NCBI GenBank assembly: GCA_964443625.1
Contig: CAYUDM010000009.1
Location: 10,005 to 74,004, forward strand
DNA length: 64,000 nucleotides
Direction of reading: 5' to 3'
Source of the DNA: an uncultured Smithella sp.
GTDB taxonomy: Bacteria > Desulfobacterota > Syntrophia > Syntrophales > Smithellaceae
Shown: piece after piece, positions 4,632 through 32,057 of the stretch
Numbering within the stretch: position 1 is the first letter of the stretch
Layout: each line of letters begins with the position of its first letter
Translations under genes and position numbers: made by a program
Notes under the pieces: model-generated
The model's input: only the letters and a program-made list of their open reading frames with translations
What the model was told of the DNA's origin: nothing
The model's database searches: none

Positions 4632-6224
4632 ATGGACCATTTTCTCAACAGGCGGCGTTTTCGAATGGTGGTCCCAGCCTATCCGGCTTTTAATATCTAT
4701 TCCCGAATCGCCAGCCGGACAACGTCCCTGGGGCCGCTTTCCATTGCCACCGTGGTCAGCCGGATGCCCGGTTGGGATGTTGAAGTGATTGACGAGAACA
4801 ACTACCGCAAATTCGGCCCACGCGACCGCGATGGCCGGCCCGACCACAGGACCCTGCAGGAGATCCGTCACGCCGACGTTGTCGGCTTTTACGGAGGGCT
4901 GAGCTCGACCATTCCGAGACTCCATGATCTGGCCCGCCTGTATAAGCTTAGCGGCGCCGTCACCATTGCCGGGGGCCAGCACTTTGTGGCTGACAATATC
5001 CGCGAGGCGCTGGAAAACGATATCGATTATATCGTGGTCGGGGAGGGGGATCACACCATCCGGGAGCTTCTTGAGGCCATTCAGACGCGAGGAATACCGG
5101 CAAATGTTGACGGGATTGCTTATCTCAAAGAGGGAGAACTGATCCAAACCCCGCAGCGCCCGCCGATTACCGATTTCAATGCGCTGCCTCTTCCCGACTT
5201 TACGCTTCTGAGATACGCCAGAGTCAGAATCTATCCGATAGGCTGGATTCGCGGCTGCGGAATGAACTGTGAGTTCTGCACCGTGAAAGGCAAACCGCGC
5301 GCCTCCGCTCCGGAACGCGTGGTGGAACAGATGGCGTCGCTTCTGGAAGCTCACAACGCCCGTCATTTCTTTATTGTGGACGACCTGTTCGGGCACGGCC
5401 GGACCGAGACGCTGAAACTCTGCCGCATGCTGGCCGAGTATCAAAAGGCCGTGGGCATCAAGCTGGACATCACGGTTCAGACCCGGCTCGACCGCGGTCG
5501 GGACAACGAGCTTTTGGTCGCCATGCGCTCAGCCGGCGTGAACACCGTCTGTATCGGTTTTGAATCGCCCATCGCCGAGGAATTGACGGCCATGGATAAA
5601 AGAATCAAGCCCGATGAGATGCTGGCGATGACCTGGCTTTTTCACAAGGCCGGCTTTCTCGTGCACGGCATGTTCATCTTCGGGTATCCGATGCCCGAGG
5701 GCGTCACCCTGAAAATGCCGCTTGCCGAGCGCGTCAAGCGCTTCAGGCAATTCATCCGCAAAAGCAGGCTCGACACGCTCCAGGTGCTCCTGCCCGTTCC
5801 CTTGCCCGGCACCGCGCTCACCGAGAGGCTTGCCGACTCCGGCCGGATTTTCCCCCGCACGGATATCGGATGGGAATATTATGATGGAAATTTTCCGGTG
5901 TTCATGCCCGATGAACCGCTGACCCCCGAAGACATGCAGCAGGCTGTGCGCAAACTCATGAAACGCTTTTATCGTTTCCGGTATCTGTTTGCCATCGGGC
6001 TCAACGTGTTGATCTTTCCCGCCATGATGCTGACAGCATGGAACATCCGCTTCGGCTGGCGCAGGTGGTATCGCCTCTGGCGTAACGATCTCATTCGATT
6101 CGGAGGCTGGGTTATCCTGCGGCGCTGGGCGTCTCTTGTCCGCCGGGGCACCTTCTTTGAGAAGCTGACCCGAGCCAAAGAGCATCTGGGCTTTGGCTCC
6201 AGAACATCGCTGTCCGCTCGGTGA
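4632..6224 (+). CDS. B12-binding-domain radical SAM protein
   Basis: CGMNCEFC (CX3CX2C) follows an N-terminal Rossmann-like B12-binding region. I chose the start at MDHF because of the AGGAGGAAAG SD; the ORF track opens at 4575. Confidence 0.8.
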   Translation: MDHFLNRRRFRMVVPAYPAFNIYSRIASRTTSLGPLSIATVVSRMPGWDVEVIDENNYRKFGPRDRDGRPDHRTLQEIRHADVVGFYGGLSSTIPRLHDLARLYKLSGAVTIAGGQHFVADNIREALENDIDYIVVGEGDHTIRELLEAIQTRGIPANVDGIAYLKEGELIQTPQRPPITDFNALPLPDFTLLRYARVRIYPIGWIRGCGMNCEFCTVKGKPRASAPERVVEQMASLLEAHNARHFFIVDDLFGHGRTETLKLCRMLAEYQKAVGIKLDITVQTRLDRGRDNELLVAMRSAGVNTVCIGFESPIAEELTAMDKRIKPDEMLAMTWLFHKAGFLVHGMFIFGYPMPEGVTLKMPLAERVKRFRQFIRKSRLDTLQVLLPVPLPGTALTERLADSGRIFPRTDIGWEYYDGNFPVFMPDEPLTPEDMQQAVRKLMKRFYRFRYLFAIGLNVLIFPAMMLTAWNIRFGWRRWYRLWRNDLIRFGGWVILRRWASLVRRGTFFEKLTRAKEHLGFGSRTSLSAR

Positions 6225-6280
6225 CGGTTTGAATCACATTTGGATCTTTCGCGAAGACTCACGAGCGAAACACCCTTAGA

Positions 6281-6383
6281 TTTATAAATGAACAGATCCA
6301 GGAGGCACAGGAAAATACCATTCAATCGTGATTCATGAGAGCTAAGACCCTTTTTTCGAAATCGTAGAACCAGCCATACGCAT
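6281..6383. repeat. Repeat family copy C (left-end fragment only)
   Basis: Aligns to 11571-11680 and 8662-8755: ..cacaggaaa..ttcaatcgtgattcatgaga..aagaccctttttt.gaa.tc.tagaa...gccatacgcat. Confidence 0.7.
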
Positions 6384-6396
6384 TTCGGACCTTGTT

Positions 6397-7566
6397 TTAA
6401 CAAGGCGGACCGTACCAGTCTTTGAACACCTGGTAGGGCACTATGCGCGGTCTGGCAAAAGGTCTGGCGACACCGGACAGGCTTTCTCCAACAATCGCAA
6501 TGTCCTCCATACGGCGCGGCTTCATCCCGGCCTTCCAGGCCCACTGGAAGGTGTCGATTTCATCCAGCATAAAGCCCATCACACGGGCGGCAACCATGTC
6601 CGCAGCCAGGGCATTGGTTCCTGCGATGATCAAATTCATTTTAACGGGCTTGCCGCCTTGCGCGGTGGAAGGACCATTTCCTTCCATGGCCATGGTGGCA
6701 TCGATGACATTGAGGCCGATTTTATTGGCCTTAACCATATCAATGATGGCCGTGGACGTTCCGGTCGGTTCCAGTTCACTGGCCCTGCTGTGCACGGCCG
6801 ACCGGACCGATCCGTAAACCAGTCCGGGGTAGGCGCCGATGCCGACATTTTTCATCGCCAGCGTCACGCCGGCCAGCGTGTGCGTCTTCATCATCGGCAT
6901 CGAACAAACCATATCGGCATGGTAAAGCGCTTCGTGAAGATGGATTTCCTTAAAGACAAAATTATCCGGAATGCCCAGCTTCATCATTTTTCCCACATGC
7001 AGGTTGACCAGGGGAACCTCTATTCTGCGTGACAGGTCGCAATATCCCAGCGTGCGAAACACGTCGTCCTGAATCGCCTGGAGGTCCTGATAGCCTTTGG
7101 CGCTGCATACATTGCCTTTTACAAACACCTTCACATTGCGCCAGGACGCCACACTGGCCTCGCCGATAGAAACGTTTTTCCCCGCTTTTTTCATCAGACA
7201 GGCCAGAGCTTCGACCACAAGAGGATTGGTCGTATCGGCAGGCGACAGGTTCAGCAAGTTCGGCTTGAGCAAGATATTTTCTTTCCCCGCGGCAACCTGA
7301 TGGATCCCTCCGATCAGATCAATCGCGCGGGTTACGGCGTAATTGATGCCTTTGGCGTCGCTCCATTTTTCATTCACCTTCACGATACTGACAATCGGTT
7401 TTGGGTCTGAATAATACAGAGGGTAAGGCGTATAGGAAGCGGGGGCAATTTCAAATTCCTGCTCACGGACGTCGCCCGACGGCATGGCATGCCTTGAGCA
7501 TCCCAGCATAGTGCTCAGGCACAACAACGAACCCTGCTTTAAAAGTTGCCGTCTGGTCAGATGCAT
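6397..7566 (-). CDS. DUF362-like protein with Tat/lipoprotein-type signal
   Basis: N-terminus MHLTRRQLLKQGSLLCLSTMLGC (RR motif plus lipobox-like Cys). The DUF362 call is from memory of the overall sequence. Confidence 0.55.
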   Translation of the reverse strand: MHLTRRQLLKQGSLLCLSTMLGCSRHAMPSGDVREQEFEIAPASYTPYPLYYSDPKPIVSIVKVNEKWSDAKGINYAVTRAIDLIGGIHQVAAGKENILLKPNLLNLSPADTTNPLVVEALACLMKKAGKNVSIGEASVASWRNVKVFVKGNVCSAKGYQDLQAIQDDVFRTLGYCDLSRRIEVPLVNLHVGKMMKLGIPDNFVFKEIHLHEALYHADMVCSMPMMKTHTLAGVTLAMKNVGIGAYPGLVYGSVRSAVHSRASELEPTGTSTAIIDMVKANKIGLNVIDATMAMEGNGPSTAQGGKPVKMNLIIAGTNALAADMVAARVMGFMLDEIDTFQWAWKAGMKPRRMEDIAIVGESLSGVARPFARPRIVPYQVFKDWYGPPC

Positions 7567-7574
7567 GCGTGCGC

Positions 7575-8372
7575 CTATCGGAAAGCCCCCAGGCCGAAAG
7601 ATAGGGGAAAGGTGTTTTTAAAGTAATAGGCTAAAACCATTTCCGACGGCTTCAAGCCGAAGACCTTCGCCAGCCGCTCCGAGTGCGCCCCTGCGGCCTG
7701 AGGGTCGCACAGAAGACGCGCGCTTCCGGTTCTGACGATGATGCGATCCGGATAGATTCGCGATACCTCCAGCAGATTGGCTTTGCCGCCGAAGTCGGGC
7801 TCATAGACTTTGCCGTCCAATAAATTAAAATTCGGCAAGCCCCGAAGTTTTTCAAACCATTGCGATTCGGACACAGAAACATCGTTTCGCTCTTTGGCGG
7901 CAAGCTCAAGGGTCATAACGGTTTGGTTGTTGAGCTTCAGTATCCCGGTATAGGTGGACGGTTCGCGGACAAGGTCGATATCGCCCATGATTTTCGGAAA
8001 ACCGAGGTATTTGATCCCTTTAACCCGGGCATCATCCGACGTCACCGGCATGGTCAGACAATGCCATCCCGTTTTGCCTTTGTATTTCGCCAGAAGCGAA
8101 ACCGCCACTTCGCGGTAGGGTGTTGTGCGCTTGTCCATTTTATAGTAGTCCATCACAAAGGCCATCATCAACGGTTCATCCGGCATGTCAAAGATGCGAG
8201 GGAGCAAATCGCGATAGGCGGCGGTGTCCTGAGTTTTATAAAACACAAACAGGCCGTCAAATTCGTGATACGTGTAAGGACGCTCCAGATGGACGCATCC
8301 GGCCGTAAGCAACAGGTAAGCGCATCCGAAAATCAGCAGAAGCGGGTGAACAACTTTTTTTAAATTCATCAT
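7575..8372 (-). CDS. Putative lipoprotein, possibly acetoacetate-decarboxylase-like fold
   Basis: I trimmed the start to MMNLKKVVHPLLLIFGCAYLLLTAGC (signal peptide plus lipobox). The upstream 74 codons of the ORF look non-coding. The family guess is weak. Confidence 0.4.
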   Translation of the reverse strand: MMNLKKVVHPLLLIFGCAYLLLTAGCVHLERPYTYHEFDGLFVFYKTQDTAAYRDLLPRIFDMPDEPLMMAFVMDYYKMDKRTTPYREVAVSLLAKYKGKTGWHCLTMPVTSDDARVKGIKYLGFPKIMGDIDLVREPSTYTGILKLNNQTVMTLELAAKERNDVSVSESQWFEKLRGLPNFNLLDGKVYEPDFGGKANLLEVSRIYPDRIIVRTGSARLLCDPQAAGAHSERLAKVFGLKPSEMVLAYYFKNTFPLSFGLGAFR

Positions 8373-12348: not shown

Positions 12349-13635
12349 ATGATCAATGTTGAATTATTTAGGGAAGTTATCTCAATGTCATTCAATCGGT
12401 TCCGACATCAAAAAAGTGTATTCATAATCCTCCTGTTCGGCTCGCTCATGTGTCTGGCGCTGATTTTAAGCTGCAGCAACGGAAATCATCGAGACTCGGC
12501 CAACTGTCTGAATTTTGTGAACTCCTTTGAAGGAGGAGCTTTGTATCTTACCCCCAATTCAATTTATCCTGTTTTGAACCTGTCCGGCAACTGGTATGAG
12601 ATGGGGCGCCAGTACGGTCACCTGCTGCAACACCAGCTGAGGGATTTTCACGATGACATCAGCTCCGATTTGACAGTCAGAGGGATGTCTTATGCCGCCC
12701 AACTGGAATCCGCCAGAGAATTCTACCAGCTCTACTCGCCTCATATTCACCAAATCATGGACGGTATGACGCAGACCTCCGGATTGAGCAAAGATGAAGT
12801 CCTTGTTCTCAACGCAGGAATGATGCTTCTGAGCGGAGTGATTCTTCAGGGCAGCCCGCCAAGTGTTTGCAGCGGCATTGCGGCATGGGACACATATACG
12901 CCGGACAATACTCTGGTGTTCGGCAGAAACTGGGATATCAGCCGCGCGGAGATGGTCCGATACATGAAGTATCTTGGCGTCGCGGTGTTTCATCCACGCG
13001 ACGGATATGCAGTGGCCAACATACATCCCATCGGGAATTTGTACCTCGAAACCGGAATGAATGAAACCGGTCTTTTCCTCGAGCTCAACAACGGCGAACA
13101 GTCCGACAATGGATTTAATCCTTCGGCAGAAGATACCGCCTCAGTTCTTTTCAGAGTCCTTGCCTCCAGCGCAACCATCGATGACGCATATGCCATGCTT
13201 GAAGCCACCCCGGCAGACCTGGCCTACATTATCCAGCTGGCTGATGCCTCGCGTGCTGTATCCATAGAGCGAGCCACATTCGGTTGCCGCCTCAGAGAGG
13301 GAAAGTATTTAGGACTTCTTGCCGCGACCAACAATTTCGTGCCGCCGTATCCATCCGAATGGGATGGGCTGGTCAATCCGCCACCGGATGCCACCCAGGA
13401 TCCCAGACTGGAAAATCTCTGGAACTTGGCTAATTCGCCGGCATTTAAAGGCAACCTCGATGTTTACGGCATGATGCGGCTCATGGAGATTGATATTCAA
13501 CAAGGCGGCGCTGTGCATGACGGGACCGTGGTTCAAGTGATTGCCTCGCCTGAAAACAAAACTATCTGGCTGCGTGGGTTGGACTATTCAGATTGGGAAA
13601 AAGTGGATCTGGGCTTTCTTTTCAGCCGGCATTGA
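12349..13635 (+). CDS. Peptidase C45 / acyl-CoA:6-aminopenicillanic-acid acyltransferase-like Ntn hydrolase, secreted or lipoprotein
   Basis: Signal peptide/lipobox (LALILSCSNG), a GNWYEMGRQYGHLL block, and an internal CSGIAAW that could supply the nucleophile Cys. AGGGGA SD before 12349; an alternative start is at 12385. Confidence 0.55.
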   Translation: MINVELFREVISMSFNRFRHQKSVFIILLFGSLMCLALILSCSNGNHRDSANCLNFVNSFEGGALYLTPNSIYPVLNLSGNWYEMGRQYGHLLQHQLRDFHDDISSDLTVRGMSYAAQLESAREFYQLYSPHIHQIMDGMTQTSGLSKDEVLVLNAGMMLLSGVILQGSPPSVCSGIAAWDTYTPDNTLVFGRNWDISRAEMVRYMKYLGVAVFHPRDGYAVANIHPIGNLYLETGMNETGLFLELNNGEQSDNGFNPSAEDTASVLFRVLASSATIDDAYAMLEATPADLAYIIQLADASRAVSIERATFGCRLREGKYLGLLAATNNFVPPYPSEWDGLVNPPPDATQDPRLENLWNLANSPAFKGNLDVYGMMRLMEIDIQQGGAVHDGTVVQVIASPENKTIWLRGLDYSDWEKVDLGFLFSRH

Positions 13636-14067
13636 TGAAAGCAACGGTTTGTTGGAAGGATCAATACTCATGCAGAAATTCCATAAAGGACAAATAGCAG
13701 TGTGCGCTTCGCGCAAATGAATCGTTAAAGTTCTTCAATTTCTGAGTTAACAAATCTGAGAGAACTTTGTCATATAATTTTACCTGCCGGATCAACCCAA
13801 CACGAATCCGCATGGCGCATTATCTGCACCTTGCAATCATTAAAAAAGAATGAATCAACAGTTTGACAGGAAGACGCCGAGTATGGTTTACTTCTGCATA
13901 CTTTCACAGATACGGACTTCGTCATGACTAGCATCACGGAACAGCCGTGCAATCATAATGCGCCTTGCTCTGTAAAAAAGTTTAGACCACCGCAGGTTAC
14001 ATAGAAGATATTCGTAGGGAATAATATAAAAGGCGTCAATCATTCAATTTTAGAAAAGGAGGACGAA

Positions 14068-14631
14068 ATGGGTAAAAATATTTTTCTAGGTGTAGGGATA
14101 TTTATATTTTTGTTTATCAGCGTTATTCCGGTCAGCGCTCAAATGAACCCAGGCAAATGGAAGATCACCACAACAACCGAAATGGCGGGAATGCCTCCGC
14201 AGTCTGTCACGCATACTCAGTGCACTACTCCAGATGATTTGATTCCCATGAGTCAAGACGCAAGTCAGGAATGCCAAATCTCGGATATCAAAAAACAAGA
14301 CAATACAGTGTCCTGGAAAATAGTCTGCGGGGGCGGGAACAACAAGATGAATGGAACAGGCGTCGTTACCTATAAGGGAAACACCATGAATGGCACAATG
14401 AATATGACTATTGTGTCCTACGGAACTCATGTGAAAAACAAAATTTCCGGACAGCGCATAGGCCCCTGCGACGGACAATCATCCAGCACAACATCCCAGC
14501 CAAGACAGAAATCCGAAATTGAAGAAACGGTCGCAGAAGACGCCAAGGATGTCGGCAGAGCCGCCAAGGACGAAGCTAAACAGGGTGTGGTTAACGAGGT
14601 TCGCGGGGCTATAAGGGGTTTATTTAAATAA
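14068..14631 (+). CDS. DUF3617-like secreted protein
   Basis: Signal peptide followed by PGKWKITTTTEMAGMPPQSVTHTQCTTPDD, which is typical of that family as I recall it. AAGGAGG SD. Confidence 0.5.
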   Translation: MGKNIFLGVGIFIFLFISVIPVSAQMNPGKWKITTTTEMAGMPPQSVTHTQCTTPDDLIPMSQDASQECQISDIKKQDNTVSWKIVCGGGNNKMNGTGVVTYKGNTMNGTMNMTIVSYGTHVKNKISGQRIGPCDGQSSSTTSQPRQKSEIEETVAEDAKDVGRAAKDEAKQGVVNEVRGAIRGLFK

Positions 14632-14804
14632 GTCATATGGGATTGATCCGGAATTCATCAAATCGGGTTCTGATGTTGGCACCAATCACTTTTGCGAAAG
14701 CTGAAATACCATAATGTTATGGGTGATTAGATTTATCCTAAACCAGATCTAAAAGAATCTACCTGCAAAGAGTGATTGCCAAATCCAATCCAGGAGGGAA
14801 AATC

Positions 14805-15659
14805 ATGAATCGTTTTAAATTTGCTTGGCTTGCTTTAATAATGTTGATCGTTTTCGCTTCTCCAACTCTTGCCGATGATGTGAAGGAACATCCGCTGATC
14901 CGACCTTTCCCGGGCTCGGTTTTGGCCAAGAATATGTCGAAACATAAAAACTTCGATGCCTACGAGTTTTACTATTTAAATGAGACAACAAAGAAACGCG
15001 AAAAGAAAACCATCAAGGGAGAATATTGGAAACTTCTGTATGAAGTTCGGACAAAGTCCGGCCAACGGGTCACAAACATTTCCATGGTGGAGTTTCTTGA
15101 AAACTACAGAGTTGCCGCAGAAGAAAAAGGCGGGCGGGTTGTTTGGGAAGACAGAGATAAAATCGTTCTTACCATCCCGCGTGAAGACGGCGGCATAACT
15201 TGGCTTCAGGTTCAACCCGCCTCCAGTATGGGGCAACAGTATCTGTACATTGTTGATGAAAAGCCGTTCAAACAATCGCTGACCTTCGGCCCCGTGCAAA
15301 TGAAGGAAGCCCTGGACAGAGACGGCAAAGTTGCTCTATACGGGATTCATTTCGATTTGGATAAAGCTACACTTAAACCCGACTCCGTCAAACAGCTCCA
15401 GCACGTTATCACCTTGCTGCTGACTTATCCGCAGTTGAAGCTCGAAGTTCAGGGGCACACCGACAACCAGGGAAAAGCCGACTATAATATGAATTTATCG
15501 CAACAAAGAGCTGAAACAGTTAACCAGTACCTCCAGCTATTTGGTATCACATCAGAACGTCTGCAACCAAAAGGTTACGGTCAAACAAAGCCTGTAGCTT
15601 CTAATGCAACAAAAGAGGGCCAAGCTAAAAACAGGCGTGTGGAGTTGGTAAAAAAGTAG
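14805..15659 (+). CDS. OmpA-family protein (C-terminal OmpA/peptidoglycan-binding domain)
   Basis: The C-terminus reads FDLDKATLKPDS...LEVQGHTDNQGKADYNMNLSQQRAETV...NRRVELV. I chose the start at MNRFKF after a GGAGGG SD. Confidence 0.8.
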   Translation: MNRFKFAWLALIMLIVFASPTLADDVKEHPLIRPFPGSVLAKNMSKHKNFDAYEFYYLNETTKKREKKTIKGEYWKLLYEVRTKSGQRVTNISMVEFLENYRVAAEEKGGRVVWEDRDKIVLTIPREDGGITWLQVQPASSMGQQYLYIVDEKPFKQSLTFGPVQMKEALDRDGKVALYGIHFDLDKATLKPDSVKQLQHVITLLLTYPQLKLEVQGHTDNQGKADYNMNLSQQRAETVNQYLQLFGITSERLQPKGYGQTKPVASNATKEGQAKNRRVELVKK

Positions 15660-15691
15660 CCATAAAACAGACCAGGCGATTCGGAAAAATC

Positions 15692-17020
15692 GAGACTGTA
15701 AATAAATCTGTGTAAATGGAATTTTTCTCACGTCGCCGCCAAATCGAAGCGGCCCTCGTACATAACAGCCAGCTGGGAGATTGTCAAAGCCCAGTTAGCC
15801 AACGGCATCGTCCATTTTTTCATAACGTCTTGAATCGCCAAAAATAATATTTTTGTTAACGCTTCATCATTCGGGAAAACGGATCTGTTTTTTGTTACCT
15901 TTCGGAGTTGCCGGTGAAGACCCTCCAAAGCATTGGTCGTATAAATGATTTTCCGGATGTGTTCCGGGTATTTAAAAAAGGTGGCGACATGCGTCCAGTG
16001 GTTTTTCCACGGGTTCACTGCCAGAGGATATTTCTGGCCCCACTTGGCCGTCAGCTTATCCAACTCATGCGCAGCCTTGTCTTCGCTGGGGGATTTATAA
16101 ATGGCCTTAAGATCGGCAATAAATTCTTTCTGATATTTTGAGCCCACATATTTGAGCGAATTGCGGATCAAATGCACGATGCACAGCTGAATCTCTGTTT
16201 TCGGAAAAGCGCTGTTAATGGCCGCCGGAAATCCTTTTAAACCGTCAACGCAGGCAATCAAAATGTCTTCAACACCCCTGTTCCTCAATTCGTTCATGAT
16301 TCCCAGCCAATAATGGGCGCCTTCGTTTTCCCCGACCCAGATGCCTAAAACATCCTTGTGCCCTTTTAAATCGATCCCCAGGCAGGTATAAGCCGCCTTA
16401 TTGATCACTTTGCCTTCCTGGCGAACAGGGTAATGGATGGCGTCAAAGAAAACGATCGCATAAACGGCCGACAGCGGCCGGGCCTGCCATTCTGCCGCCA
16501 GGGACATGACTTTATCGGTTATGTTGGAAATCGTGGTCGGCGAAATGTCTACGCCGTAAATATCTTTGATGTGTTCCTGAATGTCGCGAACGGTCATGCC
16601 TTTGGCGTACATCGATATGATCTTCTCATCAAATTCACTGATGTCGCTCTGGCGTTTCTTAACGATGGCGGGCTCAAAAGTCCCGTTCCGATCACGGGGC
16701 GTCTCTATTTTGACTTCACCAAAATCGGACCGGACGGTTTTGGCTGTTTTGCCGTTACGGTTGTTTCCGCTATTGTTTCCGTCTGTTGAATGTTTCTCGT
16801 AGCCTAAATGATCTGTCAGCTCTGCCTCCAGGATCTGTTCCGTCATCTCTTTCAGCATTCGCTTTAACAAACCGTTTTTCCCGGAAATATCTTCCAGGGT
16901 TTTACACTGGCTTAACGCCTCCTCTACATCAAACGTCAGCTTCATACTAAATCCTCCTGTCTATTCTGGTTTTATTCCTACCCTAAATAAAACCATTTAC
17001 ACAGTTAGATTTACACTCCC
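15692..17020 (-). mobile_element. IS256-family insertion sequence, apparently intact
   Basis: Imperfect terminal inverted repeats: GACTGTAAATAAATCTGTGTAAATGG on the left, and GAGTGTAAATCTAACTGTGTAAATGG on the right (reverse complement). Flanked by GAAAAATC / GAAAAAATC, a near-identical 8-9 bp target duplication. Confidence 0.85.
15728..16945 (-). CDS. IS256-family (Mutator-type) transposase
   Basis: 405 aa. Typical blocks include DHLGYEKH, YAKGMTVRDI, VFFDAIHYPVR, VDGLKGF, CIVHLIRNS and TTNALEGLHRQLRK. Confidence 0.9.
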   Translation of the reverse strand: MKLTFDVEEALSQCKTLEDISGKNGLLKRMLKEMTEQILEAELTDHLGYEKHSTDGNNSGNNRNGKTAKTVRSDFGEVKIETPRDRNGTFEPAIVKKRQSDISEFDEKIISMYAKGMTVRDIQEHIKDIYGVDISPTTISNITDKVMSLAAEWQARPLSAVYAIVFFDAIHYPVRQEGKVINKAAYTCLGIDLKGHKDVLGIWVGENEGAHYWLGIMNELRNRGVEDILIACVDGLKGFPAAINSAFPKTEIQLCIVHLIRNSLKYVGSKYQKEFIADLKAIYKSPSEDKAAHELDKLTAKWGQKYPLAVNPWKNHWTHVATFFKYPEHIRKIIYTTNALEGLHRQLRKVTKNRSVFPNDEALTKILFLAIQDVMKKWTMPLANWALTISQLAVMYEGRFDLAAT

Positions 17021-17173
17021 GAAAAAATCAATTTCTTGCGGCGACCGGGCCAAAAGGGATATTGGCCATTTATTTCTTGCCTGGCGGATCAGCCAAGATT
17101 CACGCCCTAGGAGCGTTCCCCGAACGCGCCGATACCACCACGTCACAACCAGAAATCGATTGGAGATCGATCC

Positions 17174-17241
17174 CTACGTAGATAGCGACGTCAACTTCCG
17201 TGTGAGCATGTCCCGGATGACTTTCGGGTTGGCTTTGCCGC
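17174..17241 (-). pseudogene. Orphan duplicate of the gatB 3' end (last 22 codons plus stop)
   Basis: The reverse strand reads GKANPKVIRDMLTRKLTSLST*, against GKANPKIIRDVLTRKLTSLST* in the intact gatB (19217-19284). The match is about 82% nt identity by eye. The preceding REP-like sequence is duplicated as well. Confidence 0.65.
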
Positions 17242-17306: not shown

Positions 17307-18971
17307 TCAAAAGAACTTTTTAATATAACCGGCTACAGCTCTCAAGGGGCCTGTGATTTTCCAACTACTAGAATTCATCACACTATCATATGTCATTTGA
17401 AGTCTTGAATTTTCAGACTTAAGTGCGTCAATCTGCGTCTTGAATCCCAACTCCATCGCTTGAATCTGATGTTTGTATGTAAATTGTCTATTGGCCTGAT
17501 CCTGGGAATGCTGCCTGTACTCAAGAAGGGTTCCATTGACTTTCTTTGCCTTCCATCCAGACTGAACGATTTTCAAAAACAGGCTGTAATCATCCGGCAT
17601 ATTCGGATCATCCGCATATCCCCCAACTCGTTCATAAGCCATTCTCCGGTACATGGAAGATCCATGAATATAGTTTCCCTTCTCTAATTCTTCACGATCA
17701 TATTCAGGGAAATTGATATAATAGAGCCCATTGTCTTTTTGTACGCGTCTGCTCTCTTCAAACAGGTTATAAACATGTTCCGCTTCACCGCCAAAAAGAA
17801 CATAGTCCGTGTAGGCTATCGCAACGTCTGGATGATCCTTCAATACTCCATACGTTTTTTCAAGGTAATCGCAATGGAAGCGGTTGTCGGCACCCAGGAT
17901 ACAAATCAAATCTCCCTTAGTCATGGATACCGCTTTGCGAAAATTTTTGACAATGCCTTCATTACGGATATTTCGATGATATTTCACGAGTGAGGGATAC
18001 TTTGTTGCATAGTATTCCCCGATTTCGAGTGTGTTGTCCTGTGAGCAATCGTCAACGATCAGGATTTCGTCCGGCAACAGTGTTTGATTCAGAACGGATT
18101 CGACTGCATCGGTTAGAAAACGACCGTAATTATAACTTGCAACGATAACACTGAGCGTATGCCCGGAAAGGGGTTTTATGAGTTCTTTATCTACATGTTT
18201 CTGTCGATCGGACACGCACTTTCGGTAATTTTCATCGGATAGATACTTTATACTTTTCCATGTCTCCGGTAGAGTTCTAAAATCATACTCCAGGTGTTCG
18301 GGCACTTTCGTTGATACCAATCCGTCATCATTCGTCAAATAATCATATCCGATCGATTGATAAAGACGCTCCGGATCAAGGGCTTTGTATAGATCGCGTC
18401 TTTTGATTCTGTCTTTCGGGTGCACCATTTTCAAGTGATAGGTTCTGTCATTGAGCAATACCTCGCACCCCCTCAACTCGATTGGATAATTTGGGGCATG
18501 ATATGGTTGACTGGACATTTTAACGCTATTCGGCACGGTGAATAAAATGGGCTTTATTTTTGCATTCCATACACCGTCGGATCGGTAATAATCCGCCTTG
18601 TTCCGACACTCGCACAATTTTAATACATAGACCGTCGGAATCTTAGACACAGCGGTGAGAATTTTCATTCTTTCTAAAAAACCCGTGGATATCCTCTCAT
18701 CCGGATCTGCGGTGAATATCCAGTCGTATCCATCTTTTTTAACAGCCTCATACAGTCGCTCCAAATCTTCCTGCTCTCTGAATTCGATGCCTTCATGTGG
18801 GGGGTTTTTCAAAAGCAGATTTAACTTGCGTTCCTTTTTGAGAAGCTCAACCGTTGAGTCTTCTGATCCATCATCCAGACAATACAATGCATCGACATAG
18901 TCCCGAACGCTGTCTAAAAAACCGGGAAGAAAGAATTCTTCATTTCTGACATGCAATACGCAAGCAATCAT
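17307..18971 (-). CDS. Family-2 glycosyltransferase, apparently two GT-A modules plus a C-terminal coiled coil
   Basis: Central block LSVIVASYNYGRFLTDAVESVLNQT..ILIVDDCSQDNT. The N-terminal block is similar (CLDDGSEDST). Composition is AT-rich compared with the neighbours. Confidence 0.75.
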   Translation of the reverse strand: MIACVLHVRNEEFFLPGFLDSVRDYVDALYCLDDGSEDSTVELLKKERKLNLLLKNPPHEGIEFREQEDLERLYEAVKKDGYDWIFTADPDERISTGFLERMKILTAVSKIPTVYVLKLCECRNKADYYRSDGVWNAKIKPILFTVPNSVKMSSQPYHAPNYPIELRGCEVLLNDRTYHLKMVHPKDRIKRRDLYKALDPERLYQSIGYDYLTNDDGLVSTKVPEHLEYDFRTLPETWKSIKYLSDENYRKCVSDRQKHVDKELIKPLSGHTLSVIVASYNYGRFLTDAVESVLNQTLLPDEILIVDDCSQDNTLEIGEYYATKYPSLVKYHRNIRNEGIVKNFRKAVSMTKGDLICILGADNRFHCDYLEKTYGVLKDHPDVAIAYTDYVLFGGEAEHVYNLFEESRRVQKDNGLYYINFPEYDREELEKGNYIHGSSMYRRMAYERVGGYADDPNMPDDYSLFLKIVQSGWKAKKVNGTLLEYRQHSQDQANRQFTYKHQIQAMELGFKTQIDALKSENSRLQMTYDSVMNSSSWKITGPLRAVAGYIKKFF

Positions 18972-19216: not shown

Positions 19217-20659
19217 TTATGTAGATAGCGAAGTCAATTTTCGGGTAAGCACGTCCCGGATGATTTTGGGATTGGCTTTGCCGCCGGAGGCCTGCATGAT
19301 CTGGCCGATCAAAAAACCTGCGGCTTTAGACTGGCCGTTTTTAAAATCGGCCACCGCTGCGGCTTGCGCCGCGAGCACCTGATCGATAATGGCCTCAAGG
19401 GCGCTCGCGTCGGAGACCTGGGCCAAACCTTTTGCTTTTACGATCTCGGCAGGCGCGTCATTCGAATCGAACATCGACGACAGCACGTCGCGCGCGGCAT
19501 TGGCATTGATTTCTTCTTTGGCGAGCATCGAAAGAAGCGCGGCAAGCCTCGCCGGCGTCACAGGCGTCCGGGATAGCTCCTGGCGGCGCTGACGAACCGC
19601 GGGCAATAACTGCGTGGTCAGCCAGTGCAGAGCGGCTCTGGGCTGTACGCCTTCGCGGAGAAGCTCTTCAAAGTAGCCGGCCACCTCCGGATCGGAGCTT
19701 AGATACGTCGCCTCTTCGGCGGAAAGGCCATGCTGATTGACGAAGCGTTCGGCGCGGGTCGCAGGCATTTCCGGCAGTCGCTTGCGCAACGCCTCGATTT
19801 CGTCGGGCGACAGCTCAATCGGCGGCACAGACGGATCCGGAACGCAGGGGCCTTCAAATTTCTGCCGCATCGGGAGCGTGACTTTTTTATCCGGGTCCCA
19901 CAAACGGGTGTGCAGGACCACGGGCTCGCCCGCCTGCACGGCCGCGCTCTGGCGGGTGATCTCATAGGCGATGGCGTCTCCCACATGCCGGACGGAGTTC
20001 ATGTTTTTCACTTCCACTTTGGTGTTCATCTGGTTTGTGCCTTTAGGCCGTATGGAAATGTTCGCGTCCGCGCGCATGGTTCCGTTTTCCATGCTGCACT
20101 CCGATGAACCCACATAGCGCACCTGCGTGCGCAGCGCCTTGAGAAATTCCATCGCGTGGTGCGGCGTGCGGAAATCCGGTTCGGTGACGATTTCGACAAG
20201 CGGCGCGCCGGCGCGGTTGAAATCCACCAGGCTGATGGGGTTGCGGCCTTCCATTTCATGCACCAGCTTGGCAACGTCTTCCTCCATGTGGATATGATGG
20301 ATGCGCAGCCTTTTGACGGAGCCGTTCTCATCGGTGATGTCGATCCAGCCGCCGCGGGACAAAGGCAGATGCGCCTGTGAAAGCTGATAACCTTTGGGCA
20401 GATCCGGATAATAGTAAACCTTCTGATCGAACGCGCTTTTCGGCTGGATTTCGGCATTGAGACCCAGGCACAAAAGCGCCGCTTTATCCAGCGCGGCCTT
20501 GCTGAGGCGCGGCGCGGCGCCGGGATACCACAGGCAGACCGGACAGGTGTTGACATTGGGATCATCGCCGGGATTGTTGGGACAGTCGCAAAACAGTTTG
20601 GTGGCACAGTTGAGTTCCACGTGAATTTCCAATCCAATGACCGCTTCAAATTCCATCAT
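19217..20659 (-). CDS. gatB: Asp-tRNA(Asn)/Glu-tRNA(Gln) amidotransferase subunit B
   Basis: MMEFEAVIGLEIHVELN.. and the rest of the sequence are typical of GatB. I trimmed the start to 20659 (GGAGG SD; ATGA overlap with the upstream stop). The ORF track extends to 20818. Confidence 0.9.
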   Translation of the reverse strand: MMEFEAVIGLEIHVELNCATKLFCDCPNNPGDDPNVNTCPVCLWYPGAAPRLSKAALDKAALLCLGLNAEIQPKSAFDQKVYYYPDLPKGYQLSQAHLPLSRGGWIDITDENGSVKRLRIHHIHMEEDVAKLVHEMEGRNPISLVDFNRAGAPLVEIVTEPDFRTPHHAMEFLKALRTQVRYVGSSECSMENGTMRADANISIRPKGTNQMNTKVEVKNMNSVRHVGDAIAYEITRQSAAVQAGEPVVLHTRLWDPDKKVTLPMRQKFEGPCVPDPSVPPIELSPDEIEALRKRLPEMPATRAERFVNQHGLSAEEATYLSSDPEVAGYFEELLREGVQPRAALHWLTTQLLPAVRQRRQELSRTPVTPARLAALLSMLAKEEINANAARDVLSSMFDSNDAPAEIVKAKGLAQVSDASALEAIIDQVLAAQAAAVADFKNGQSKAAGFLIGQIMQASGGKANPKIIRDVLTRKLTSLST

Positions 20660-21849
20660 GATTTTCCTCCTGTGCCCGGCCGGGAAAGAAAAGTTCCCAG
20701 CGCCAGTATCCGCGCGTCGTCTTTGAGCGCGCCCACAAACTGCAGGGCGGGCCCGCCCGCCGCGAAAGGCGCCGCCGTCAACGCCGGACAACCTGTAACA
20801 TTGGCGTGCGCCGTCCATTTAAACTGATCGTAGAGGTTCTCCAGTGATTCCGGCGTGTCGGGTTTTTGCACAGGAAACACCAGAGCTTCAACCTGTTCAA
20901 AAAGGCGGCTGAATTCTTTGCAAAGCCGCGCGCGGATGCGGCAGGCGTTTTCATAGGCGTCATATCGTTCAAACTGAAAATACGCGCCCTGGATGAGATA
21001 GCTTTTAAGGAGCGTTTTGAAAAAAGCCCCGCGGGATTGCAGATACATGTCGTTCCAGTTTTTGGCCCCGGGAGCGCGTTTGCCGTAGCGCACGGAATCA
21101 TACCGGCCGGCCGAAGACGAGGCTTCAACCGATCCGACAATCCGGTGCACCAGCCCGCACAGGCCATAATCCGGCCAGGAAAGCATCTTTACCTTGAAGC
21201 CCGCTTTTTTGAGTTGCGCCAGTTCTTCGTCAAACGCCTTTTGCTCATCGCCTGCGAGTTCCGCTTTTGCTTCCTCGACAACGCCCAGGGTCATCCGATC
21301 CGGCCGAATCCCGGCAGGTGAACCCTCGGTATACGACAACACAGGCTGGGAAAAGTCTCGGTCATCCGGCCCGGCAACGGCGGCCAGAATCAGGCGGATG
21401 TCCTCAGGCGCACCGGCGAGAATCCCGCAGGCTTCCATCGACGGAAGAAGTCCGGCAATGCCCACACGGGGAATGAGCCCCCAGCTGGGCTTGAAACCCC
21501 AGATGCCTGCGCGGCAGGCGGCCAGACGCGCTTCGCCCGCAAGATCGAGCATCATTTCCGCCCGGGCGGCCTTTTGATCAATGGCCCGGCCTGCTGCGCT
21601 TTGGGCGTCAAGACCCAAGCCGAATTCACTCGTGTGCGTCGAGCCCACAAGGAAAGCGCCGTTTTGTTGAAGCCGCTCGACAACCGCCGCGTTTTCGGCC
21701 GCCTGGAAACCGGCCAGAGCATCCGAGCCCGGGTCCATAGGCCAGCCCGCGACGCCGATGCCGGATTGAATGGCTACGGTCATTCCCGCAAGCTTGCCCG
21801 CGGGACTTTCAGTTCTGTTGGGATTGCGATAGAAAAAAGTGGAATCCAT
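20656..21849 (-). CDS. GatA-like amidase-fold protein lacking the amidase catalytic residues
   Basis: 397 aa and collinear with GatA (..WGFKPSWGLIPRVG.., ..SSSAGRYDSVRYG.., ..NVTGCPAL..). However, IKD is replaced by IQS, the GGSSGG block is absent, and TGGSIR is replaced by AGEARL. See findings. Confidence 0.7.
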   Translation of the reverse strand: MDSTFFYRNPNRTESPAGKLAGMTVAIQSGIGVAGWPMDPGSDALAGFQAAENAAVVERLQQNGAFLVGSTHTSEFGLGLDAQSAAGRAIDQKAARAEMMLDLAGEARLAACRAGIWGFKPSWGLIPRVGIAGLLPSMEACGILAGAPEDIRLILAAVAGPDDRDFSQPVLSYTEGSPAGIRPDRMTLGVVEEAKAELAGDEQKAFDEELAQLKKAGFKVKMLSWPDYGLCGLVHRIVGSVEASSSAGRYDSVRYGKRAPGAKNWNDMYLQSRGAFFKTLLKSYLIQGAYFQFERYDAYENACRIRARLCKEFSRLFEQVEALVFPVQKPDTPESLENLYDQFKWTAHANVTGCPALTAAPFAAGGPALQFVGALKDDARILALGTFLSRPGTGGKS

Positions 21850-21859
21850 AGATCATCCT

Positions 21860-23980
21860 TTATTCCAGAATACTGGCGACTTTGAAATAATTGCCCTTGA
21901 CCGCCGGCGCGCTTTGAAGAAGTTTTCCGGTTTCGGCCAGTTCCGATCGCTTGGCATCCAGACCGGGCCGCGTGCGATGAGACGCGGGCAAAACCGATTG
22001 GATCGGCTCTTCATTTCCCGCTTCTTTGCCCGCAAGGCCGGCCAGCGCTTCGGCCTGGCTTAAAACCTCTTCCATCACGGACCGCTCCGCAGGATCAACG
22101 CCGATGCGCGACACCCACGACACGCGGTCGAGCAGATTTTCTTTTTCCGCGGTTCCGGGAAGAACCTCTTTGCCGCCCAGATTCAAAAGGCCCAGTTCAG
22201 CCAGTTGCTGATGTTTGACAACGGACGGCGCACCGGTAAGCGGACAACCTGCCGAGCGGTTTTTCGGAAATGCGATGACGTCGCGGATGGAGGGCGTTTT
22301 GAGAATCATCGAGACCACACGGTCCATTCCCAGCGCGAGGCCTCCGTGAGGCGGCGCGCCGTAGTCGAAGGCTGTCAGGAAAAAGCCGAACTTTTCCCGC
22401 ATGTCCTCTTCGGAAAGCCCCAGCGCAGAGAAGATCTTGCGCTGAAGATCGCGGTTGTTGATACGGATGCTGCCGCCGCCCAGCTCCTCGCCGTTCATCA
22501 CCAGATCGTAGGCGCGTGAACGCAACCCGAGCAGCTCCTCGACGTTTTTCGGGTCGAAATCCGTTCGGTCCGGCGCGGTGAAAGGATGATGGCTCGAGGT
22601 GACGCCCCCCTCCTCCGTGGGTTCAAAAAGAGGAAACTCTGTGACCCACAGCGGGCAGAAAAGATCTTCGGGAATCAGCCCCAGACGGTTGGCCAGGTGC
22701 AGGCGAAGCTGCCCCAACGCGGACGTGACAATCGCGTAAGACGGATCGGCCACCATGATGAGCACGTCGCCGTCCTGCACGTCAAAACGTTTCCAGAGCG
22801 CAGCCAGTTCCGCCTCGCTGAAAAACTGGACGATGTTGGATTCCAGTTTTCCGCCTTCGGCGCGCATCCAGGTTATTCCCTTGGCGCCGAAAGACGGCGC
22901 GATTTCTTTGGCGTATTCATTTTGCAGGACGTTTTTGCTCAGGCTCTCCGACCTGCCTTTGACGTTGATGCCCTTGATGCAGCCGCCGCGCTTGAGAATC
23001 TGTCGGAAGATTGAATAATTTGTATGGGTGAAAACATCGGTGACATCCACAAAGCGCAGGCCGAAGCGCAGATCGGGACGGTCCGAACCGGTGGTGTCCA
23101 TCGCCTCGGCGTAGGTCATGCGCGGAAATGGCCGGGGAAGCGAAATGCCGCCGACGTCGAACATCTGTACAGTCAGCTCTTCGATCAGATCGTAGAGAAA
23201 TTCTTCATCGATAAAAGACGCTTCAAGATCCAGCTGCGTGAATTCCGGCTGGCGGTTGGGGCGCAGGTCTTCATCACGGAAACACCGGGCCATCTGGAAA
23301 TAGCGCTCCAGGCCGCCGATCATTAAAAGCTGTTTGAAAAGCTGCGGCGACTGCGGCAGGGCGTAGAAATTGCCCGGATGGACGCGGCTGGGCACCAGAT
23401 AGTCGCGCGCGCCTTCAGGTGTGCTCATCGTCAGCACGGGCGTTTCGACTTCCATAAAGCCCCGCTCACCAAGGAAGCGGCGCACGCACTGGAATATTTT
23501 GTGGCGCAATAGCAGATTGCTTTGCATGGCCGGTCGCCGGATATCCAGATAGCGGTACTGGAGGCGCAGTTCTTCTGAAACGCTTTCGGAACCTGTTTTT
23601 TCCGCGCCCGCAACCATGGCTTTATCGGATATCGCAAACGGTAGCGGATCGGATTCGGCCAGAATTGTCATCCGGCCGACGACCACTTCAACCTGCCCGG
23701 TTTCAATATTGGGGTTTTCCGTTCCGGCCAGTCTTTTTCTCACCTCGCCTTCGGCTGAAACGCAATATTCAGCGCGAAGCGAGGAGGCCTTCTCGCAGAT
23801 CTCCCGGGGCGTGATCTCCGGATTGAAAACGATCTGCACAATGCCGCTGCGGTCGCGCAAATGGATGAATATCAGACCGCCGTGATCGCGGTAGGCGTCC
23901 ACCCATCCACAAAGCTGCACATTTCGTCCGACATGCTCCACCTTCACGCTGCCGCAAAAGGTCCGCAGGGAAAAACTCAT
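21860..23980 (-). CDS. aspS: Aspartate-tRNA ligase with a C-terminal GatC-like domain (fusion)
   Basis: The first about 595 aa are a bacterial class-II AspRS (FRDEDLRPNRQPEFTQLD, GGGSIR, ..AFPKN). The last about 95 aa resemble GatC and end in APAVKGNYFKVASILE. Confidence 0.9.
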   Translation of the reverse strand: MSFSLRTFCGSVKVEHVGRNVQLCGWVDAYRDHGGLIFIHLRDRSGIVQIVFNPEITPREICEKASSLRAEYCVSAEGEVRKRLAGTENPNIETGQVEVVVGRMTILAESDPLPFAISDKAMVAGAEKTGSESVSEELRLQYRYLDIRRPAMQSNLLLRHKIFQCVRRFLGERGFMEVETPVLTMSTPEGARDYLVPSRVHPGNFYALPQSPQLFKQLLMIGGLERYFQMARCFRDEDLRPNRQPEFTQLDLEASFIDEEFLYDLIEELTVQMFDVGGISLPRPFPRMTYAEAMDTTGSDRPDLRFGLRFVDVTDVFTHTNYSIFRQILKRGGCIKGINVKGRSESLSKNVLQNEYAKEIAPSFGAKGITWMRAEGGKLESNIVQFFSEAELAALWKRFDVQDGDVLIMVADPSYAIVTSALGQLRLHLANRLGLIPEDLFCPLWVTEFPLFEPTEEGGVTSSHHPFTAPDRTDFDPKNVEELLGLRSRAYDLVMNGEELGGGSIRINNRDLQRKIFSALGLSEEDMREKFGFFLTAFDYGAPPHGGLALGMDRVVSMILKTPSIRDVIAFPKNRSAGCPLTGAPSVVKHQQLAELGLLNLGGKEVLPGTAEKENLLDRVSWVSRIGVDPAERSVMEEVLSQAEALAGLAGKEAGNEEPIQSVLPASHRTRPGLDAKRSELAETGKLLQSAPAVKGNYFKVASILE

Positions 23981-31981: not shown

Positions 31982-32057
31982 TGGCTCCCCAGCGCGGACT
32001 CGAACCACGGACATGCTGGTTAACAGCCAGCCGCTCTACCGACTGAGCTACTGGGGA
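31982..32057 (-). tRNA. tRNA-Asn (anticodon GTT), CCA encoded
   Basis: Hand-folded sequence: TCCCCAG TA GCTC AGTCGGTA GAGC G GCTGG CTGTTAA CCAGC ATGTC CGTGG TTCGAGT CCGCG CTGGGGA G CCA. Confidence 0.9.

Follow-up and report, generated by a model that had tools for sequence, protein, structure and literature searches.

How does a tRNA-dependent amidotransferase obtain its amide nitrogen when its GatA subunit appears to have lost the residues for glutamine hydrolysis? This question is raised by an operon in the stretch of DNA analysed here, 64,000 nt (64 kb) of contig CAYUDM010000009.1 of an uncultured Smithella sp. (hereafter the window). In the textbook picture of GatCAB, GatA is a glutaminase that is coupled via a 30-Å tunnel to GatB, the kinase/transamidase, and the chemistry of GatA is regarded as integral to the formation of Asn-tRNA as well as Gln-tRNA. 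In the window, a gene for an aspartyl-tRNA synthetase (AspRS) with a GatC-like tail is followed by a gene for a 397-amino-acid (aa) GatA homologue and then by gatB. The GatA homologue is very probably not an amidase-signature glutaminase, and the three genes form a conserved, expressed, order-wide module that is a variant of the known GatCAB system. With slightly better than even confidence, we favour a role of the homologue as the structural A subunit, without glutaminase activity, in an Asn-transamidosome that would be covalently tethered and use free ammonia.

The homologue occupies the gatA position, as a first-pass annotation made from the DNA letters had proposed, and both its sequence and its predicted fold were closest to GatA. 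The 397-aa protein matched the Pfam Amidase family (PF01425) with 150 bits, above the gathering cut-off of 27, and the NCBIfam gatA model (TIGR00132) with 182.9 bits, under the cut-off of 481.1; the Syntrophus buswellii orthologue likewise stayed under that cut-off (224.4 bits). Its top seven sequence matches in the PDB were all GatA (E 7e-37 to 7e-21), the best being 3h0l, 3kfu, 3al0, 2df4 and 4wj3 (E 7e-37 to 1e-26). A profile of 35 relatives ranked the PDB matches identically, with E values down to 7e-58, and gave the same residue mapping.

Residues were mapped in a HMMER single-stretch alignment to Staphylococcus aureus GatA (2df4) and are given in S. aureus numbering. The catalytic Lys79 was replaced by Q28 (VAIQSG versus GIKDN), and Ser178, the nucleophile in the Ser-cisSer-Lys mechanism of amidase-signature enzymes (PMC2330236), was replaced by E106 (LDLAGEARLAA versus SDTGGSIRQPA). 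The third residue, cis-Ser154, fell in an insertion (vpGGSSGGsaa) without a counterpart in the 397-aa protein. Compared to S. aureus GatA, the protein was shorter by about 50 residues at the N-terminus and by about 22 in the cis-Ser loop. The residues that bind glutamine in S. aureus GatA, Tyr309, Arg358 and Asp425 (bioRxiv 10.1101/733030), corresponded to H235, Y284 and F343, the alignment around Asp425 being less certain than elsewhere. Of the nucleophile loop, D174, G177 and R180 were retained as D102, G105 and R108. Ser84 was considered as a surviving cis-Ser and ruled out; it aligned best with Ser158, where the SAAAVA helix begins, and several relatives have Asn or Gly in its place. R128, E139 and R249 were conserved and aligned with R200, D211 and R323 of S. 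aureus, which may line the tunnel; no weight is placed on this assignment. With both the triad and the glutamine-binding residues gone, glutamine hydrolysis by the GatA-like subunit should be impossible. The hand alignment in the first-pass annotation, with Lys79 and Ser178 replaced and the cis-Ser segment deleted, was thus borne out by the HMMER alignments and the family profile, and so was its reading that amidase-signature chemistry is lost.

The same replacements were found throughout the family when conservation was counted over 92 non-redundant relatives. The position of Ser178 held Glu in all 92, that of Lys79 held Gln in 86 and Lys in none, and D102, G105 and R108 were each present in 92 of 92. 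At the glutamine-binding positions, His was found for Tyr309 in 90 relatives (H235), Tyr or Phe for Arg358 in 86 (position 284) and Phe for Asp425 in 79 (position 343). The distance from G79 to D102 was 22–23 residues in 90 of the 92, compared to 44 in S. aureus, and the GGSSGGS signature stretch was absent in 91; the lone GGSS (locus L075) lay within the shortened loop and was not the canonical motif. In one further locus (L078, 6001-7257), a tandem-repeat expansion (GSAVTPGPSGSAVAPGPSGSAV) was located exactly in the shortened former cis-Ser loop, after residue 79, which suggests that this loop may now be a tolerant surface element. Variation was thus absent or almost absent at E106 and H235, and strong conservation was seen for Q28, Y284 and F343. 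Conservation of the replacement residues points to a pocket that was rebuilt under constraint instead of simply decaying. The structural scaffold proposed in the first-pass annotation therefore holds in part: a non-glutaminase subunit is well supported, and calling it a mere scaffold is probably too weak.

The AlphaFold model of the 397-aa protein (pLDDT 81, pTM 0.86) retained the GatA fold. Its best Foldseek match was 3kfu_E, the GatA chain of the Thermus transamidosome (TMq 0.85, E 8e-29), followed by the GatA chains of 3h0l, 2df4, 4wj3 and 3al0. Residues 232-310 were the most conserved part of the protein. Within them, residues 251-275 (DSVRYGKRAPGAKNWNDMYLQSRG) were among the most conserved of the family, yet they had the lowest confidence in the monomer model (pLDDT 46–57). 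A segment that is very conserved and poorly modelled in the monomer suggests an interface element, perhaps ordered only in the complex.

A conserved pocket could also mean that the subunit binds a ligand, for instance glutamine, asparagine or ammonium, and acts as a sensor or gate of GatB or AspRS activity. The strongly conserved substitutions at six former catalytic or substrate positions would fit such a role, as would the placement of the most conserved block at residues 232-310. However, Arg358 and Asp425, which recognize the amino-acid backbone of glutamine, are now aromatic, and no known ligand-binding motif has arisen. Sensing alone would also leave the nitrogen source unexplained, and we regard this explanation as quite improbable.

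The phylogenetic distribution of the short form, which the first-pass annotation had suggested following up, was examined at the level of proteins and genomes. A database search gave 462 matches, the best 120 of which were all 394–401 aa long and carried names such as "amidase family protein [Smithellaceae]". Among representatives at 50% identity, about 13 full-length clusters were 36–52% identical to the window protein, and the score fell from 367 to 237 bits between these clusters and canonical GatA. In a scan with one genome per species, 299 genomes had a relative; the best 80 of the 299 were almost all Syntrophales, including the complete genomes of S. buswellii DM-2 and of the benzene fermenter ORM2a. 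The nearest relative, at 91% identity, was in a Syntrophaceae metagenome-assembled genome (MAG). Many records of the module bore labels such as Dehalococcoidia, Chloroflexota, Acidobacteria, Verrucomicrobia and Gaiellales (L020, L026, L036, L038, L044, L060, L072, L079 and others). Their AspRS-GatC was 70–79% identical to that of the window despite the off-phylum labels, which probably reflects mis-binned contigs or mislabelled MAGs, or possibly recent transfer.

Over 135 pairs, dN/dS was about 0.23 (range 0.12–0.38) for the triad-less gatA and about 0.12 for AspRS-GatC and GatB, a comparison confined to the gene and its own operon partners. The mean identity was 0.61 for the GatA homologue versus 0.79 for AspRS-GatC and 0.78 for GatB. 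The gene is under purifying selection that is relaxed roughly twofold. Contigs from four sludge metatranscriptomes, 95–99% identical, covered parts of all three genes and both junctions; these contigs were assembled at low depth, and DNA carry-over is possible. Operon-bearing DNA runs came from bioreactor, manure, digester, wastewater and sediment metagenomes. A decaying pseudogene, which the first-pass annotation had named as an outcome that would overturn its proposal, or an annotation artefact would agree with a gatA score far under the cut-off (183 versus 481 bits) and with evolution faster than that of the neighbouring genes. In contrast, the open reading frame is intact, its length is conserved, relatives occur in up to 299 species genomes, dN/dS lies at 0.12–0.38, the operon structure is fixed and RNA-derived contigs cover the locus. 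The conservation data thus refute this explanation, to which we give virtually no weight.

The protein might instead still be an ammonia-releasing hydrolase with a non-canonical catalytic set, for example with Glu106 as a general base. Glu106 is invariant, Asp102, Gly105 and Arg108 are kept in 92 of 92, and an acidic or amide residue recurs at the nucleophile position in other triad-less lineages, in a list that was biased by its search profile (see below). However, deletion has removed the cis-Ser loop, the substrate-binding residues have been lost, the rate of evolution is about twice that of the partner proteins, and no amidase-signature enzyme is known to us to function in the absence of the Ser-cisSer-Lys triad. 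We therefore consider a surviving hydrolase highly improbable.

The layout of the operon places the GatA homologue between the two other parts of the system (Table 1). The gap that separates the gatA homologue from the aspS-gatC stop had been given as 8 nt and was found to be 10 nt (TAA AGGATGATCT ATG). The proposed ATGA overlap with gatB, which starts at 20659, proved real. In the window, the last codons of the triad-less gatA, GGA GGA AAA, supply a GGAGG ribosome-binding site for gatB, and the terminal GG(K/N) codons did so in the loci of relatives that were checked. The gatB ATG was 0–5 nt from the preceding stop, overlapping or abutting it, in all loci checked, and the spacer between the fusion and the gatA homologue was 10–21 nt in 67 relatives. 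The order fusion (706 aa), triad-less gatA, gatB was present in all 80 genome loci with sufficient flank and was kept also in family members at 41–43% identity. No conserved extra gene was found beside the module in any locus compared; the flanking genes vary by locus, so no further conserved partner appears to be encoded nearby.

The fusion scored 758 bits against the NCBIfam aspS model NF001750. Against NF009460 (PRK12820), "bifunctional AspRS/GatC", it scored 1309.7 bits over model positions 18-723, just under the cut-off of 1379, and the same near miss was obtained for S. buswellii, ORM2a and a Smithella-type relative (1316–1356 bits). A profile of nine fusion tails gave 2df4_C and 4wj3_C as best PDB matches, end-to-end but weak (E 0.07 and 0.27). 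With Pfam GatC (PF02686), the S. buswellii tail scored 35.2 bits (cut-off 23) and the window tail 15.9 bits. Judged by these profiles, the AspRS tail is a divergent GatC. The gatB product scored 577.5 bits against NF004012 (cut-off 338), with GatB_N and GatB_Yqey both present.

In Smithella-type relatives (L003/L004, L009, L010, L014, L016 and L025), a second aspS of ordinary length was observed (about 590 aa, with 47% identity to the fused copy); L003/L004 have this gene at 13613-15391 on the minus strand, in a hisS-aspS pair 1–2.5 kb from the module. In part of the clade at least, the fused AspRS is thus an additional copy. The His/Gly residues associated with non-discriminating AspRS were dropped as a discriminator, RDHGG being present in both copies and uninformative.

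The tRNA-Asn(GUU) gene of the window, with U1-A72, G73 and a CCA end that is encoded in the DNA, is situated 10 kb away from the operon. The U1-A72 pair that GatCAB needs is thus present, and this tRNA is the likely substrate of the system. The first-pass annotation had linked the GatA homologue with both the AspRS-GatC fusion and this tRNA gene. The former link is upheld by the fixed gene order, but linkage to the tRNA gene is not, as no tRNA-Asn was found within about 6–10 kb of the operon in the 12 relatives checked.

Table 1. Position of the module and its parts in the window, and triad-less GatA proteins in other loci
Feature	Position	Strand	Basis or context
AspRS-GatC fusion, 706 aa	21860-23980	minus	Open reading frame and NCBIfam NF009460
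AspRS core, residues 1-598 of the fusion	22187-23980	minus	Pfam tRNA_anti-codon, tRNA-synt_2 and GAD; NF001750, 758 bits
Linker of about 16 residues between AspRS core and GatC-like tail	22139-22186	minus
GatC-like C-terminal domain, about residues 615-706, including stop codon	21860-22138	minus	Tail profile versus PDB; Pfam GatC
10-nt spacer AGGATGATCT with Shine-Dalgarno-like AGGA, aspS-gatC stop to start of gatA homologue	21850-21859	minus	Sequence reading
Predicted glutaminase-dead GatA homologue, 397 aa	20656-21849	minus	Profile matches, alignments, AlphaFold and Foldseek
Codon CAA (Gln28), position of S. aureus GatA Lys79	21766-21768	minus	HMMER alignment
Codon GAA (Glu106), position of nucleophile Ser178	21532-21534	minus	HMMER alignment
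Shortened loop, about residues 80-88, GLDAQSAAG; about 22 residues including GGSSGG and cis-Ser154 gone	21586-21612	minus
ATGA overlap, stop of gatA homologue and start of gatB	20656-20659	minus	Sequence reading
gatB, canonical kinase/transamidase subunit, 480 aa	19217-20659	minus	Pfam GatB_N and GatB_Yqey; NF004012
tRNA-Asn(GUU)	31982-32057	minus	ARAGORN
L088 (P0293/P0155), 476 aa, triad Thr/Cys/Asp	6001-7431 of its locus		Directly after a 699-aa AspRS-GatC fusion
L089, 405 aa, Glu at nucleophile position	4675-7656 of its locus		Plain gatC-gatA-gatB operon with free-standing GatC
L090, 396 aa			After an open reading frame ending in a GatC-like tail; then gatB, its GatB cluster labelled Clostridia
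L091, 402 aa			Preceded by the C-terminal end of an AspRS-GatC fusion; followed by gatB

For Syntrophus aciditrophicus SB, a published inventory lists no asnS, one glnS, one gatCAB and one asnB (PMC4206432 Table S1). On the basis of this inventory, the enzyme would serve Asn-tRNA-Asn only and would be indispensable. S. aciditrophicus SB presumably carries the triad-less form as well; NF009460 scored all tested Syntrophales alike (1310–1356 bits), which fits a model seed from Syntrophus.

The preferred mechanism of the tethered Asn-transamidosome can then be outlined as follows. The AspRS part would charge tRNA-Asn with aspartate, the fused GatC tail would clamp GatB to the GatA-like protein, and GatB would phosphorylate and amidate Asp-tRNA-Asn to Asn-tRNA-Asn. 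GatC is required for the folding of GatA and for its binding to GatB (PMC2330236), and the three proteins would be expected to assemble physically. As GatC is here part of AspRS, a single tethered Asn-transamidosome should result from the four functional units. We think it likely that the GatA-like protein is retained as a structural subunit of this AspRS-GatC/GatB complex, being the A subunit that GatB and GatC need, and its remodelled former active site would probably be the mouth of the ammonia tunnel. No other glutaminase domain was found in any of the three module proteins, so free ammonia is the simplest nitrogen source. The amide nitrogen might thus come from free NH3/NH4+ in the ammonium-rich habitats of these organisms (digesters, manure, sludge), and direct use of ammonia would save the one ATP per amide that glutamine synthesis costs, a plausible gain for energy-starved syntrophs. 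That free ammonia is the physiological amide donor is a proposition on which we are evenly divided.

The use of ammonia by such an enzyme has a precedent. Yeast mitochondrial GatFAB, a GatA/GatB-type enzyme, transamidates with 20 mM NH4Cl, bypassing the glutaminase, and a loosened GatA site raised the activity (PMC4027206). In contrast to the protein studied here, yeast GatA is active and glutamine is its normal donor, ammonia being an in vitro bypass.

Several points weigh against the proposed ammonia-dependent transamidosome. Tse8, a type VI secretion toxin of Pseudomonas aeruginosa with a GatA-like amidase-signature fold that lacks the glutamine-binding residues of GatA, is proposed to take the place of GatA beside GatB and GatC and is harmful in P. 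aeruginosa and Agrobacterium tumefaciens (10.1101/733030). A dead A subunit and ambient ammonium are therefore not automatically enough, and a specific adaptation is implied. Unlike the 397-aa protein, Tse8 has kept the triad, and it is a foreign, harmful substitute and not a native, selected partner. The conserved Glu106, His235 and Tyr284 could stand for a new ligand or new chemistry rather than a passive port. The search for a second GatA or another glutaminase covered the window and the locus flanks only, the relaxed dN/dS was read against the operon partners alone, and a search with the S. buswellii protein gave no match named S. aciditrophicus SB.

The ammonia might instead be supplied by an active glutaminase encoded elsewhere, such as another canonical GatA or an unrelated enzyme docking on the complex, with the GatA homologue acting as a scaffold or regulator of a subset of complexes. 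Two gatCAB sets are found in some bacteria, such as Clostridium acetobutylicum with two gatCAB and three aspS (PMC4206432 Table S1), and duplicated parts of the pathway exist in this clade, as seen with the second aspS near the module in Smithella-type relatives. The harm done by Tse8 shows that GatB and GatC with a non-working A subunit can be costly elsewhere, and the inventory of amidases covered the window. However, tblastn found no second amidase or AspRS homologue within the 64-kb window, no conserved extra gene flanked the module in any locus, and a single gatCAB is inventoried for S. aciditrophicus SB (PMC4206432 Table S1). A second GatA would also compete for the same face of GatB with a partner that is translationally coupled to gatB. 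A glutaminase from elsewhere thus appears unlikely to us, and the structural A subunit supplied with free ammonia is the explanation that we carry forward.

Compared to the bacterial GatCAB/Asn-transamidosomes of Thermus thermophilus (3KFU) and P. aeruginosa (4WJ3), the module has the same three protein parts together with a presumably non-discriminating AspRS; its GatB is of the canonical kind, its A subunit folds like GatA (TMq 0.85 to 3kfu_E) and the tRNA-Asn has U1-A72. In contrast to these systems, the A subunit here is without the triad and the glutamine-binding residues and is about 88 residues shorter, and GatC is a C-terminal domain of AspRS and not a free protein, so that synthetase and amidotransferase are covalently joined. 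AtzE-AtzG (PDB 6C62), which the depositors call a vestigial GatCAB-related complex, was among the Foldseek matches of the 397-aa protein and is similar in that an amidase-signature protein needs a small GatC-like partner, but AtzE is an active hydrolase with another substrate and no GatB. Ammonia-dependent counterparts of glutamine amidotransferases are known, such as AsnA as opposed to AsnB, and the NH3-dependent NAD synthetase. The proposed logic is the same, the glutaminase being dropped and free ammonia used where it is plentiful, except that in those enzymes the glutaminase domain is wholly absent whereas here it is retained as an apparently inactive shell.

Triad-less GatA proteins were also found in other lineages. 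The 150 best representatives included 126 full-length proteins, of which 33 had none of the three triad residues and 11 were without some, in a list that is biased since the search profile itself had Glu at the nucleophile position. Within this list, an acidic or amide residue at the nucleophile position recurred in the other triad-less lineages. Four such loci (L088–L091, Table 1) had a G+C content of 32–45%, and the AspRS of L088 and L091 was only 45–48% identical to that of the window, which makes these distant lineages. At least two of the four, and perhaps three, come after an AspRS-GatC fusion. Triad loss does not strictly depend on the fusion, as the free-standing GatC of L089 shows. 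P0151, a fifth protein without the triad, carries the label Dethiobacteria. The L088 protein passed the TIGR00132 cut-off (515 versus 481 bits) despite its changed triad and would therefore be annotated automatically as active.

A bolder version of the proposal would make the enzyme the first natural, obligately ammonia-dependent tRNA-dependent amidotransferase, welded to AspRS by the GatC fusion, with the former glutaminase pocket, rebuilt around Glu106, His235, Tyr284 and Gln28, forming an ammonium intake port where the GatA-GatB tunnel begins, and with repeated, ATP-saving origins. The multiple-origin reading names Syntrophales and Bacillota-like lineages, energy-limited anaerobes and ammonium-rich habitats. 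We offer this version tentatively and consider it doubtful.

Downstream of gatB, a 67-nt direct repeat of the gatB 3′ end (85% identical) was observed at window positions 17175-17241 and 19218-19284, and the repeat copy encodes a 21-aa copy of the GatB C-terminus. The repeat pair brackets a gene of lower G+C content for a family-2 glycosyltransferase (GT2, 17307-18971). It looks as if the GT2 gene was inserted just downstream of gatB, duplicating the gatB end. An insertion sequence is present at window positions 15690-17022, with a Mutator-family transposase gene at 15728-16945 (394 bits) and 37-nt inverted repeats at 15690-15726 and 16986-17022.

No description of a triad-less GatA or of an AspRS-GatC fusion was found in the literature searchable as full text, and NF009460 names the fusion and is silent on the adjoining GatA homologue. 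These proteins are called "amidotransferase subunit A" by JGI and, in one NCBI MAG record, "Glutamyl-tRNA(Gln) amidotransferase subunit A". Metabolic reconstructions that trust these names would build in a dependence on glutamine that is probably not real.

An order of syntrophs, with Syntrophus and relatives of Smithella that drive the methanogenic breakdown of fatty acids, aromatics and alkanes, thus appears to have kept the shell of GatA and discarded its chemistry. The AspRS-GatC fusion would offer structural work a ready-made covalent transamidosome. If free ammonia is used, the module would also be a natural system for the loading and gating of the tunnel without coupling to a glutaminase. 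According to the published inventory (PMC4206432), asparaginyl-tRNA synthetase is missing from at least one member of the order, in which case each asparagine codon would depend on the enzyme. If the nitrogen came from free ammonia, translation in these organisms would be tied directly to the supply of ammonium.

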